Below, piece after piece: positions 59,430 through 64,000 of a DNA stretch of 64,000 nt. How positions within the stretch are numbered: the stretch's first letter is position 1; every line of letters starts with the position of its first letter. The translations under genes and the position numbers were made by a program. This stretch comes from Escherichia phage pEC-N1203-2Af.1. The stretch is taken from the sequence record OQ540978.1; one strand, given 5' to 3'. The notes beneath the pieces are model-generated. The model was not told where the DNA came from and made no database searches. It saw nothing but the letters and a program-made list of their open reading frames with translations.

Positions 59430-61220
59430 ATGTCAAAGATCATTTTGGGAGACACAGGTTGTAAGGAATGTATCTCTCATGGTCGTGATAAAACCCACAA
59501 CCACATGATTCTCTTCCGTAACGAAGAGACAGGTGAGGAGTGGGGAAGTTGTAACCGTTGTGGGAATTACGAAGTGTTCGAAAAGGGCACTACACCTACC
59601 CCAAACGAGAAGAAAGAGTTATCCCCTGAAGAGTTAAGAGAAGTCTTAGATGATTGCTTAGAACTTCCTCAGGGTGAACTCACTCGACGTTTAATCCCTA
59701 AAGCTGTATCAGAGCGTTTTGAGTGTCGCATCGGTTTAAGTCAGACTGATGGTCAGACTCCAGACAGCTACTTCTTTCCTCGTGAACGTGATGGAAACAT
59801 CGTTGGTTACGAGGTTAAGCTGCTAGACAGTAAGAAGTTCTATTACGTCGGTAGTGTGAAAGAAGCAGACCTTTTTGGTATGGCACAGGCTCAACGTGGA
59901 GATGTGTACAACAAGAAGCTATTCATTTTTGAAGACCCGCTATCTTGTATGTCTGGTTTCCATGTCCTTACAGCTTTTACAAATGCAACAAACATTAAAC
60001 CAGCATGTGTTTCTTTACCGTTCGGTGCAGGTTCAATCTCTTCTGTGTTGTCTCGTAATCGAGACTTCGTAAATGGTTTTGAGGAGGTTGTGCTCTGCAT
60101 GGACAACGACGATGCAGGTGAGATAGCTTTAACAAAAGGTCGTTCTTTATTCCCTCATGTCAAATTTGCTCGTATTCCTAAAGGAACTTTCCCATACAAC
60201 GGTGTGGAGAAAGAGATTAAGGATGCGAATGACATGCTTCTGTCTGGTCGTGGTCAAGAGTTATTCAACATTCTCAAGTATTCAGCAAAGCGGGAATCTC
60301 CTGCTGGTGCTGTAACAATCTTTGATTGCCTTGATGATGCTCTGAAGAAAGCGGAGTGGGGTATCCCATATCCATGGAAGACTCTGAATGAGATGACCTT
60401 CGGTATTCGATGGGGAGAGGTAGTAGCCATCGGTGGTGGAGTAGGTAGTGGTAAAACACTAATTGCTCACGAACTGGTTGCTCATCTGTGCTTAGAGCAT
60501 GGTTTTAATGGGGGTGGCTTCTTCTTGGAAGAGAAGGTAGGCATGTCTGTTAAGAACATCGCTGGTAAGTCAGCATCAATTCCTTTCCACCGACCAGATG
60601 TTGAATATGACGAGGAAGATTTGCGTAATGAAGCACTTCGTTATGCAGACAAATTCTTCTTGTATGACAACTTCGGACAGAATGAATGGGAAGACATTAA
60701 ACAGTGTATCCGTTTCTGGGTAGTTGAAAACCAGTGTAAGTTCATCATCCTTGATAACATTACCGCTCTGGTATCTCATTTAACACCTTCAGAGATTAAC
60801 ACTGAAATCAGTAAGATTGCTTCCGAGCTTGCTGGTATGTGTAAAGAATTAGACTTTACCGCTTTCGTGCTATCTCACCTTAATGCTCCGGCAGGTGGTG
60901 CTCCTCATGAAGAAGGTGGACAGGTACGTGAAGTACAGTTCACTGGCTCTCGTTCTCTTATGCGTTGGTGTCAGTGTATCATTGGCTTTGAGCGTGACAA
61001 GCAAGCTGATGGCTTAGCTAAGAACCTCTCAGTCATTCGATTACTGAAAGAACGTAACTACGGTCAGACAGGTGTCTGTTATACTAAGTATATCAGTGAA
61101 ACCGGTAGACTTGTAGAAAGGGAAGACTTTGAAGTTGATGAAGATAATCCATTCGTTTTAACTAACGGAGAGGATGCAGCTTCTCTCGTCAACCAAGCAG
61201 ATGGAGCTTCACCGTGGTAA
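59430..61220 (+). CDS. Bifunctional primase-helicase (T7 gp4-like)
   Basis: ORF 596 aa; N-terminal Cys4 zinc finger ([10 protein letters not shown]...CNRCGNYEV), TOPRIM-like acidic motif (CMDNDDAGE), C-terminal DnaB-like Walker [10 protein letters not shown]. Confidence 0.8.
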
Positions 61221-61771
61221 AGAAAAAGAAGAAAGTGTTTGCATTCGATATCGAGAGTAATGCACTGTACGACGACATAACTAAAGTATGGTGTATTTAT
61301 ATCTTTGATGTTGAAACTGGTGAAAGGTGGGGCTATCGGCCTCACCAAATTGAAGACGGGATTCGTAAACTTACAGAAGCAGATGTGCTCGTGGGTCATA
61401 ATATTATCGACTTTGACTTACCTGCTCTGAAAAAGATATATCCCTCTTTGATTAAATATCATTTTAACGTCTTTGACACTTTATGTCTTAGTCGATATCT
61501 CAAACCTGACCGTATTGGTGACAGTCCTGAGTATCCGAAAGGCGACCCTAGACGTGGCCCAAGAGGTCACGGCTTGAAGCAATGGGGTGAGTTCTTAGAG
61601 GAACTTAAAGGTGACTACGGTGAGCAAGAGGAAGCATGGGATGCTTTCACTGAAGATATGTTTACTTACTGTGAACAGGACGTTAACTTAACGGTTAAGG
61701 TTTATCTTTTCTTGTGTGAACTCACGGGATTTGACCCTTACGACCCACCTTCATTATATTGGAAAATGTAA
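61214..61771 (+). CDS. 3'-5' exonuclease domain of a T7-like family A DNA polymerase, as a separate ORF
   Basis: ORF 185 aa; FDIESNAL (Exo I), [13 protein letters not shown] (Exo II), YCEQDV (Exo III); colinear with T7 gene 5 N-terminus; stops right after Exo III. Confidence 0.7.
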
Positions 61772-61772
61772 A

Positions 61773-63107
61773 ATGATTGTTATCCCGATTAACCAAATTG
61801 AAGATAAGGTTGCTCAACAACCTGATATCACTGTTGGTCGTCACTTCATTGAACAGTTGATTAACAACAACTTGATTCCAGACGGCATCTGTCCTATCAT
61901 TACTGGTGGGGCTGTTCGTGATGCTGTGCTTAATAACATAGCACCTCACGATATTGATATCTTCATTGTCAGAGGACAGACGCCAGGGACTCAAAATACT
62001 TTCACTACAGTTGGTCGTTGGCAAGCTCTTGGACGAGAGATTGAAAGCAATGTGAAAGAGTGGCTTGAATCACAAGATATCGAGTATTCATCCCTTCTTG
62101 CTGAATCTACAAACGAATCCTATGCTGGGAGTTCTCAACTAACATTCACTGATATTATTGAGTTTCAGTGGAATGGAACACGAATTCAATTCATGTTTAA
62201 CTATCCTACTTCTATTGAAGAAGTCATGGATAGTTTCCCTATGATGTGTCGTGGTGCGATGACTCTTGACAAATTATTCATGACCTCTCACGGATATTTG
62301 GCTATGACCGCCCCTTGTCCAGTGGTTGTCTCTAGTCGTGAAATCAGGTATGTTCACAAGAAGTGGCCTAACTCTCAGGTATTGAGGTTTTCCTCTCCAG
62401 CAGTTGCACATCAATACATGGCCCAAACTCGATATCTTCCTACACCTCAATCAGTTAATCATCTGGTCAACGAACGAGGTCAGGTTGCTCTTATTGAGGA
62501 TACAACAAGTGCTCAGTATTGTGTTGACCGTGACATGAGTCGCTTCTTTGGAATCCCTTATGAAGAGATTCAGTTAATGTCAAGCACACATGGCTCTAGC
62601 CAGATTCATGCGTATTGGTCTGAAGGGTTGACAAATCTAACGACTAACACGGGTGGTGATCTGCTTGGTCGAGAAGAGGAACCTAACCGACACAATGCAA
62701 TTGAAGGGGTGTTTGTAGCCCCTGCAATGCGTCGAGCACAAGAGTCACGAAGAGAAAGCCCTACTCGTAGAACATCTTTTGAAGAAGCTCTTGGTATTAC
62801 TGGCGATTCATTTGAGCGGTGGTTGTCTAGACGTTCTAATGGTCAATCAAATGGTTTGACTGTTAGCCGTCACCAGTTCTCTGGTCAGAGTTTCAACGCA
62901 CCTGTTAGGGCTGTATGGACTGATGAAGGCGTGGCCCAAGATGTGGTTGATAATCTCGCCGATCTTAATATTCCCTCTCATGGGGAACTCGCTGAAACCG
63001 TCAACCAAAGTCTCGCTGATCGCTTTGTTGCTGATAACCCTGAAATATTAGAGCCTCAGGTTGGTGGGGAATTGGACCAGCTGTTAAATTCACAAAACAT
63101 TCGTTAA
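61773..63107 (+). CDS. Pol-beta superfamily nucleotidyltransferase (GGxVRD...DxD head motif as in CCA-adding / poly(A) polymerase family) with long C-terminal extension
   Basis: Within ORF 61716-63107; ATG 61773 right after upstream stop; ITGGAVRDAVLNNIAPHDIDIF. Confidence 0.45.
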   Translation: MIVIPINQIEDKVAQQPDITVGRHFIEQLINNNLIPDGICPIITGGAVRDAVLNNIAPHDIDIFIVRGQTPGTQNTFTTVGRWQALGREIESNVKEWLESQDIEYSSLLAESTNESYAGSSQLTFTDIIEFQWNGTRIQFMFNYPTSIEEVMDSFPMMCRGAMTLDKLFMTSHGYLAMTAPCPVVVSSREIRYVHKKWPNSQVLRFSSPAVAHQYMAQTRYLPTPQSVNHLVNERGQVALIEDTTSAQYCVDRDMSRFFGIPYEEIQLMSSTHGSSQIHAYWSEGLTNLTTNTGGDLLGREEEPNRHNAIEGVFVAPAMRRAQESRRESPTRRTSFEEALGITGDSFERWLSRRSNGQSNGLTVSRHQFSGQSFNAPVRAVWTDEGVAQDVVDNLADLNIPSHGELAETVNQSLADRFVADNPEILEPQVGGELDQLLNSQNIR

Positions 63108-63119
63108 TAAGGAAAAAGA

Positions 63120-63674
63120 ATGAGTTTACTAGGAAGCCCAGAGTTACATAAATTAATTGACGATGGTGTTATTGATGCACCACACTCAGCTGTTAATTCC
63201 TCCAGCATTGATGTTCGTATTGGAGATCGCGTTCTGATGGAAGGTGCAGCTAATGGGGTTGTTGATATCTCTGCTAAAGAATCTCCTAACTTCAATGAGG
63301 TTATGATTCCAGAGGAAGGGTTGGTGATCAAACCGGGTGAGTGTTTCTTAGCTCATACAGTGGAGACATTCAACCTTCCAGACAACATTAGCTGTGACTT
63401 CATGCTACGATCTACTGTTGGTCGTTGCTTCTTAGAGCACATGCACGCTGGTCATGCTGATGGCGGTTGGCATGGCAGTCAGCTAACTATGGAATTCAAG
63501 AATGTCCTACAGCACCACTCTCTGCTAATTAAACCGGGGATGCGTATAGGTCAGATGGAATTCTTTAAACATTCATCATCTGAAGAGGACAGCTACGCAA
63601 CGAAAGGTTCATATAATAACCAACAAGGGCCAACAAAAGCTTTTGGTGGAACAAACCATGCTGATATGCTATGA
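63120..63674 (+). CDS. dCTP deaminase (dUTPase-superfamily)
   Basis: ORF 184 aa; overall pattern and C-terminal ATKGSYNNQQGPT resemble dCTP deaminases. Confidence 0.65.
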   Translation: MSLLGSPELHKLIDDGVIDAPHSAVNSSSIDVRIGDRVLMEGAANGVVDISAKESPNFNEVMIPEEGLVIKPGECFLAHTVETFNLPDNISCDFMLRSTVGRCFLEHMHAGHADGGWHGSQLTMEFKNVLQHHSLLIKPGMRIGQMEFFKHSSSEEDSYATKGSYNNQQGPTKAFGGTNHADML

Positions 63675-64000
63675 TGAAGTAGTTGATCTCTTTAATATAG
63701 ACATGTCATCGCCTTCAGGGCTTTCTTGGAAAAGGAAGCCTAGTAAGTTTGCTAATGATATAGTAGGCAAGCCTGCTGGCAAGCTCACAAAAGACGGATA
63801 TTATCAAATTCCCTTAGGAGGAGTTCATGTCCATAATCATAGGATTCTTTTTGTTCTTTATACTGGTGAGGATTTATCGGATGAATATCAAATAGATCAC
63901 GCTGACGGTAATAGAGAAAACCTAGAAGAGACTAACCTGAGAAAGTGTTCTCACTCTGAGAACAGCCAGAATGCTAAGACAAGGGTTGATAACAAACTAG
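63658..64000 (+). CDS. HNH homing endonuclease (partial, runs off window end)
   Basis: Frame open from ATG 63658 overlapping the dCTP deaminase 3' end; KDGYYQIPLGGVHVHNHRILF...YQIDHADGNRENLEETNLRKCSHSEN is the HNH_3 pattern. Confidence 0.6.
   Translation, partial: MLICYDEVVDLFNIDMSSPSGLSWKRKPSKFANDIVGKPAGKLTKDGYYQIPLGGVHVHNHRILFVLYTGEDLSDEYQIDHADGNRENLEETNLRKCSHSENSQNAKTRVDNKL

Follow-up and report, generated by a model that had tools for sequence, protein, structure and literature searches.

Escherichia phage pEC-N1203-2Af.1 (OQ540978.1), of which we analyzed a stretch of 64,000 nucleotides (the window), encodes a stand-alone 185-aa open reading frame (ORF) that is very probably the proofreading subunit of a two-gene, T7-type family A replicative polymerase. 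The phage is a Kuravirus (a phiEco32-like podophage of the Gordonclarkvirinae) with 94-95% nucleotide identity to EcoN5, ES17, and 172-1, and the ORF is part of a close-packed gene array between positions 59430 and 64000, all on the + strand (Table 1). We predict from sequence that the polymerase is split into separate exonuclease and polymerase genes, the latter beyond the window. Data on the polymerase therefore come from the complete relatives 172-1, EcoN5, and O18-011 and from metagenomic contig L013, which encodes an identical dCTP deaminase (Dcd).

The exonuclease ORF matches the Pfam family DNA_pol_A_exo1 (PF01612) at 35.4 bits (cut-off 23.6; E 1.2e-8) over profile positions 18-168 of 173. 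A PDB sequence search returned only the T7 gene 5 polymerase (gp5; residues 3-178, E 6.8e-12). The AlphaFold2 (AF2) model is confident, with a predicted local distance difference test (pLDDT) of 87.9, and its RNase H-like alpha/beta fold superposes on the gp5 exonuclease domain; in a Foldseek search of the PDB, the 27 top-ranked structures are T7 gp5 without exception (E down to 9e-10, query TM-score 0.58-0.72). Two PHROG profiles, phrog_38876 (1.1e-75) and phrog_403 (3.4e-38), also match, and both are named "DNA polymerase exonuclease subunit." At 185 aa, directly 3' of a T7 gp4-like primase/helicase gene, the ORF has the size (~160-195 aa in the family) and the position of a phiEco32-/LUZ24-type subunit.

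The catalytic motifs are intact. D12 and E14 (Exo I), H62, N63, and D68 (Exo II), and D156 (Exo III) are invariant across 17 aligned homologues with identities as low as 33%, at least 90% of which also retain Y152, the Exo III tyrosine. Aligned with T7, D12/E14 correspond to D5/E7, H62-N63...D68 to the HNGHKYD segment, and Y152...D156 to YNVQD. The first-pass annotation had equated this ORF with the gp5 exonuclease domain, with Exo I to III present and an end right after Exo III. This proved correct, as the C terminus lies 29 residues past Exo III, equivalent to T7 residue ~205. The crude ratio of nonsynonymous to synonymous changes (pN/pS) is 0.02-0.09 against five relatives. Because of the Pfam and PDB matches, the confident fold, the invariant catalytic residues, and the low pN/pS, we predict that the ORF is a complete, functional, and selected DEDDy-type proofreading domain.

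Translation begins at a GTG codon, preceded by GGAG at 61203-61206 with a 7-nt spacer. The start overlaps the stop of the primase/helicase gene by 7 nt (GTGGTAA), and because of this overlap the exonuclease is probably translationally coupled to the primase/helicase. Two local features of the protein were also recorded. Residues ~101-118 (61514-61567) form a loop insertion specific to the Kuravirus clade, modeled at a block pLDDT of 59 and missing in remoter stand-alone exonucleases, and many stand-alone exonucleases carry a C-terminal FDxxxPP motif just ahead of the fission point.

As the first-pass annotation had stated, there is no polymerase domain in the window (tblastn, all 64 kb). The relatives encode a family A polymerase of 600-614 aa on the same strand, 9.0-10.5 kb downstream of the exonuclease stop and past 26-29 genes. 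The distance from exonuclease stop to polymerase start is 9.0 kb in 172-1 (26 genes between), ~9.3 kb in contig L013, ~9.9 kb in O18-011 (across the record ends), and 10.5 kb in EcoN5 (29 genes). The intervening genes include those for a nucleotidyltransferase, Dcd, thioredoxin, ThyX, and PhoH. The earlier suggestion that a polymerase-domain ORF might be found past position 64000 is borne out in these relatives; the gene maps to 2419-4218 of O18-011, just beyond the window.

The 614-aa polymerase of 172-1 has PF00476 as its sole Pfam domain and is without an exonuclease domain. It matches T7 gp5 confidently over residues 496-704, with weaker segments back to ~295. When the exonuclease of the window is concatenated with this polymerase, the product is colinear with gp5 residues 1-704 at 35.5% identity, and polymerase motifs A (DGSGLELR), B (RDNAKTFIYAFNYG), and C (HDE) are intact. 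The exonuclease ends and the polymerase starts at the same point, T7 residue ~205, within the linker that joins the exonuclease domain to the thumb. A search of six-frame ORFs with the exonuclease-family profile found no second exonuclease domain in the whole-genome equivalent, composed of the window and the rest of O18-011.

The split extends well beyond this isolate. A word-indexed protein search with the exonuclease returned 66 homologues down to 28% identity, all but one of them no longer than 250 aa, and a stand-alone gene of 163-195 aa is conserved in dozens of lineages. Two remote homologues (54% and 49% identity) are on metagenomic contigs of 90-105 kb. On both, the order is gamma-glutamyl cyclotransferase (GGCT), primase/helicase, exonuclease (whose start touches or overlaps the stop of the helicase gene), dcd, and thioredoxin/ThyX; the polymerase was not found within 10 kb on these two contigs. 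The order primase/helicase, exonuclease, and then polymerase is shared by EcoN5, 172-1, O18-011, the contigs with identical Dcd, the remote metagenomic relatives, and LUZ24. A three-way alignment places the exonuclease/polymerase junction at T7 residue ~205 for Kuravirus and ~207 for LUZ24, and the sequence VADIIS(K/R)Q at the polymerase N terminus is common to both groups.

More broadly, an exhaustive hidden Markov model (HMM) search with the exonuclease gave 5414 matches, and the exonuclease region is N-terminal in nearly all of the matches listed. Among 147 newly listed matches, 33 are of 250 aa or less and 85 are of 550 aa or more. The corresponding tblastn search against phage genomes hit 1919 records, mostly fused polymerases of Autographiviridae. 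Since the matches include both short and full-length proteins, the family spans fused and split forms. The fission itself appears to be old and conserved, because the gene order and break point recur in LUZ24 and in the metagenomic relatives of 49-54% identity; we infer that one ancient event is the most economical reading.

Two separate genes are the norm for phiEco32-like phages (Kuravirus and its relatives) as well as for LUZ24-like phages, and the split is already known. The orthologues in phiEco32 and other kuraviruses, annotated "3'-5' exonuclease subunit" (YF01 gp70, 172-1 ORF94, ECBP2_0072), share 95-99% aa identity with the protein studied here. They occupy the same place after the primase/helicase gene, ahead of the same nucleotidyltransferase and dcd genes, with the polymerase ~9-10 kb downstream. 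Nothing material sets the present isolate apart from them; it carries a minority dcd and HNH cassette and is without the HNH insertions found elsewhere in EcoN5 and O18-011. A published description of the group refers to [quoted passage not shown] (PMC9965538). The same split was reported for the LUZ24 group, with Savalia et al. 2008 cited for phiEco32 (PMC3517423, PLoS One 2012). Knowledge of it thus goes back to the phiEco32 and LUZ24 genome papers, and RefSeq and PHROG use the name "DNA polymerase exonuclease subunit," so its existence is no surprise. Many GenBank records label the gene "DNA polymerase"; the proper annotation is "DNA polymerase 3'-5' exonuclease subunit."

LUZ24 (Bruynoghevirus) resembles the kuraviruses in its stand-alone exonuclease (gp25, "DNA polymerase exonuclease subunit"), whose start overlaps the stop of the primase/helicase (gp24), in the position of the junction, and in an upstream block of amidoligase, glutamine amidotransferase, RimK, and GGCT genes. 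It differs in sequence (~33% aa identity), in its exonuclease-polymerase gap of only 2.3 kb with 8 small genes, in lacking the nucleotidyltransferase and dcd genes, and in a polymerase (gp34/gp36) that is additionally interrupted by an intron. The T7 gene 5 polymerase (PDB 1T7P, 6N7W) is homologous throughout, with exonuclease and polymerase catalytic motifs conserved, but is one polypeptide, whereas the kuravirus enzyme is encoded by two genes at a distance of ~10 kb. Relative to gp5, the thioredoxin-binding segment of the relatives' polymerase is shortened, and large insertions lie in its thumb and ahead of motif A.

We predict that an ancestral gp5-like gene was split in the linker between exonuclease and thumb, at T7 residue ~205. 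The exonuclease half would have remained directly downstream of the primase/helicase gene, and the polymerase half would have come to lie further along the same strand, from 2.3 kb away in LUZ24 to ~10 kb in kuraviruses. Without a covalent link, the two proteins may come together again as a gp5-like holoenzyme, whose exonuclease subunit would take off misincorporated 3' nucleotides, proofreading in trans. In Escherichia coli Pol III, the polymerase alpha (DnaE) and the DEDD exonuclease epsilon (DnaQ) are likewise separate polypeptides that act as a complex. This is an analogy in principle only: the C-family polymerase is unrelated, epsilon did not arise by fission of a polymerase gene, and the ORF of the window is not a member of the epsilon (DnaQ) family. 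The conserved fission amounts to a natural two-subunit gp5 that could serve enzymology, for example by supplying exonuclease-free polymerases or in work on proofreading in trans.

Several points weigh against a two-subunit polymerase. A literature search for an exonuclease-polymerase complex or proofreading biochemistry in these phages found none, and the state of the present phage's polymerase, intact or intron-containing, is judged from relatives. The exonuclease is probably coupled to the primase/helicase, not to the polymerase, and its binding partner could be the helicase. Kuravirus and LUZ24 alike keep the overlap between the two genes. In O18-011, an HNH gene between primase/helicase and exonuclease (L004 869-1363) breaks the overlap, so coupling of the two is not obligatory. 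We consider it unlikely that the exonuclease is a dissociable proofreader, coupled to the primase/helicase and docking on the helicase or replisome instead of the polymerase, and/or that the adjacent nucleotidyltransferase is a Gad2-type anti-Gabija enzyme. If the exonuclease were such a dissociable proofreader, replication fidelity would be tunable via the exonuclease:polymerase ratio.

There is little chance that the ORF encodes a DnaQ-like nuclease of its own, unconnected with the polymerase and acting, for example, in host DNA degradation, recombination, or anti-defense. Such a role would fit a gene that is far from the polymerase gene and probably coupled to the primase/helicase instead. 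However, the nearest relatives in both sequence and structure are N-terminal exonuclease domains of T7-type polymerases, and the cognate polymerase lacks exactly this domain and starts where the exonuclease stops. The first-pass annotation had allowed that a complete polymerase with its own exonuclease domain might be encoded elsewhere, making the ORF an unrelated DnaQ-like enzyme; the genome equivalent holds one exonuclease domain, that of the ORF itself, and no other proofreading domain.

The first-pass annotation had also raised two explanations for the missing polymerase domain, a split into two genes or an interruption by inserted genes, and saw in the HNH gene a sign of invasion. The first is upheld by the polymerase-only gene of the relatives. 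The second, in which a homing endonuclease, intron, or intein recently broke a continuous polymerase gene whose two parts are put back together by splicing of RNA or protein, is extremely improbable. It draws on the HNH gene in the exonuclease-polymerase interval, on group I introns in the polymerase (RF00028, 102 bits, L011 18367-18630) and primase/helicase genes of close relatives, and on LUZ24, where the polymerase is annotated as two parts flanking an endonuclease VII gene and an intron in the DNA polymerase gene has been described (PMC3517423). However, the interval spans 9-10.5 kb and 26-29 independent genes, among them several conserved genes of metabolism, and the exonuclease has its own stop and the polymerase its own start. 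We identified no group I or II introns at the Rfam gathering threshold in the window or the O18-011 exonuclease-to-polymerase interval, and Pfam reported no intein, Hint, or LAGLIDADG domains in the exonuclease or polymerase proteins. The introns of relatives sit within the polymerase domain, away from the junction. The ~70 kuraviruses without the HNH gene are equally split, and the junction shared with LUZ24 makes the event ancient. HNH or intron invasion is thus rejected as the cause of the split. That the ORF is a decaying pseudogene remnant of a fused polymerase, for which its small size alone speaks, has practically no likelihood and is ruled out by the conservation of its catalytic residues (four of five invariant, the fifth being the Exo III tyrosine), low pN/pS, confident fold, and retention as a stand-alone gene in dozens of lineages.

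The exonuclease was said to be followed by a nucleotidyltransferase, a dCTP deaminase, and an HNH endonuclease overlapping the dCTP deaminase end. All four + strand ORFs exist, and one detail changes: the nucleotidyltransferase most likely starts at ATG 61773 (444 aa), the start annotated in relatives, and not at GTG 61716 of the ORF list.

Table 1. Genes of the replication region and the separate 5'-3' exonuclease gene (window coordinates)
Feature	Position	Strand	Evidence
Primase/helicase, T7 gp4-like, 596 aa	59430..61220	+	Pfam DnaB_C 9.9e-11, weak Toprim; annotated DNA primase/helicase in EcoN5, 172-1, O18-011
Predicted stand-alone 3'-5' proofreading exonuclease subunit, DEDDy, 185 aa, equivalent to T7 gp5 residues 1 to ~205	61214..61771	+	Pfam, PDB, AF2/Foldseek, PHROG 403/38876
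Pol-beta-superfamily nucleotidyltransferase-like protein, 444 aa	61773..63107	+	GGAVRD..DID motif, sub-threshold PolyA_pol head; remotely Gad2-like
dCTP deaminase, 184 aa	63120..63674	+	Pfam DCD 1.3e-31; TIGR02274 100.3 bits, over cut-off
Predicted free-standing HNH homing endonuclease	63658..64000 (cut by window end)	+	Pfam HNH_3 1.2e-9; PHROG 99 1e-26
5'-3' exonuclease, T7 gp6/FEN-like, 272 aa	1877..2695	+	PHROG 107 "exonuclease" 1.2e-64; Pfam 5_3_exonuc_N 26.9 bits, below cut-off

The HNH gene starts at an ATG inside dcd, giving a 17-nt overlap, and its first 114 codons of ~169 fall within the window. Together with the present dcd allele it occurs in only ~7 distinct kuraviruses (O18-011, EcoN5, 1-6af, FH3, SR02, ES17, and KarlSchell_Bas89), among which the allele is 91-99% identical in nucleotides. 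The ~70 other E. coli kuraviruses, such as 172-1, SU10, and phiEco32, have a dcd of ~65% nucleotide identity, no HNH gene, and the same polymerase split. At the protein level the Dcd of the window is 59% identical to that of 172-1, whereas the flanking genes are ~95% identical in nucleotides; the dcd genes of Cronobacter phages GAP52 and A24 are nearer to the window allele (72% nucleotide identity). Because dcd diverges while its flanking genes stay ~95% identical, the dcd and HNH segment (63058-64000) is a swapped cassette, and it looks like the outcome of intronless homing with co-conversion or of the import of a foreign allele. The HNH gene itself is probably a free-standing homing endonuclease, unrelated and newly acquired, which came with the foreign dcd allele. 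It did not cause the split, because phages with and without it have the same one.

The earlier impression of a region rich in mobile elements is borne out, with introns in relatives' polymerase and primase/helicase genes and HNH genes at other intergenic sites. In EcoN5 an HNH gene lies ahead of the GGCT gene (L001 8266-8802); this gene and the one in O18-011 are both missing from the window. Two metagenomic kuravirus contigs that encode a Dcd protein identical to that of the window, L011 and L012, carry a group I intron (RF00028, 101-102 bits) in the polymerase gene after codon ~454 (at 18367-18630 and 18394-18657, respectively); the gene is uninterrupted in L013, 172-1, and O18-011. The primase/helicase gene is split by HNH-bearing insertions inside Walker A (GGGVGS|GKT) in L011 (6597-7380), where a group I intron match falls below threshold (35.8 bits, E 3.2e-7), and at SRSLMR|WCQC in L013 (7266-7840). 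In the window this gene is intact. None of the relatives' homing elements is at the exonuclease/polymerase junction. Homing elements are active in the replication module of the relatives, and the HNH cassettes, group I introns, and dcd allele swap are typical of lytic phage replication genes.

The assignment of the nucleotidyltransferase-like protein is weak. It rests on a match to the Pfam PolyA_pol head at 17.5-22.2 bits (below the cut-off of 23), a match to PHROG 12715, and the motif GGA[VI]RD-x9-D[IV]D[IV]F, which positional homologues of 25-38% identity retain. Conservation is limited to the N-terminal ~200 aa, with a variable C-terminal half (~240 aa); the gene is missing from one distant relative (L008). 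The AF2 model (pLDDT 38.9, from a shallow alignment) is unusable, a profile search of PDB sequences gave no match, and a homologue search with a diverse profile found nothing outside kuravirus-like phages. The local Pfam scan listed PolyA_pol alone, and precomputed matches to PF26128 ("Gad2"), marked weak, are present on most homologues.

Gad2 is a phage anti-Gabija protein of ~400 aa with a predicted nucleotidyltransferase domain (bioRxiv 10.1101/2023.05.01.538930). A profile built from 20 sequences of the kuravirus family was set against nine Gad2 homologues (Supplementary Table 10 of the same preprint). Local hhalign alignment gave 95% probability and an E value of 3.2e-8 over the 35-column GG..DxD motif only (reversed control, E 0.018), and global profile alignment gave 91.8% probability. 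Neither pairwise BLASTP nor a shallow profile against a single Gad2 sequence was significant. We treat the resemblance to Gad2 as a lead, not as membership of the family; the protein may be an anti-defense enzyme inside a replication module.

A T7 gp6/FEN-like 5'-3' exonuclease, which a PDB sequence search did not match, is encoded near the start of the window and is predicted to be the separately encoded third Pol I-type activity of the phage; PMC9965538 describes it as the 5'-3' exonuclease subunit. A promoter and terminator scan of 58000-64000 gave sites not above the count in shuffled sequence, consistent with co-transcription of the genes in that region. The C terminus of the primase/helicase (61130-61217) is an acidic tail that ends in an aromatic residue, W. 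The acidic tail of T7 gp4 ends in Phe and docks on gp5, and the likeness suggests a T7-like contact between helicase and polymerase.

Upstream of the replication genes, 49833-59210 encodes a block of amidoligase, COOH-NH2 ligase, glutamine amidotransferase, ATP-grasp (RimK-like), and gamma-glutamyl cyclotransferase proteins. This block is common to LUZ24 and distant metagenomic relatives and is conserved alongside the split-polymerase module. A tRNA-Arg(TCT) is present at 45533-45607 (ARAGORN and Rfam). The ORF at 573-1220 is sigma-factor-like, with a weak Sigma70_r2 match and a syntenic gene in relatives annotated "RNA polymerase sigma factor."

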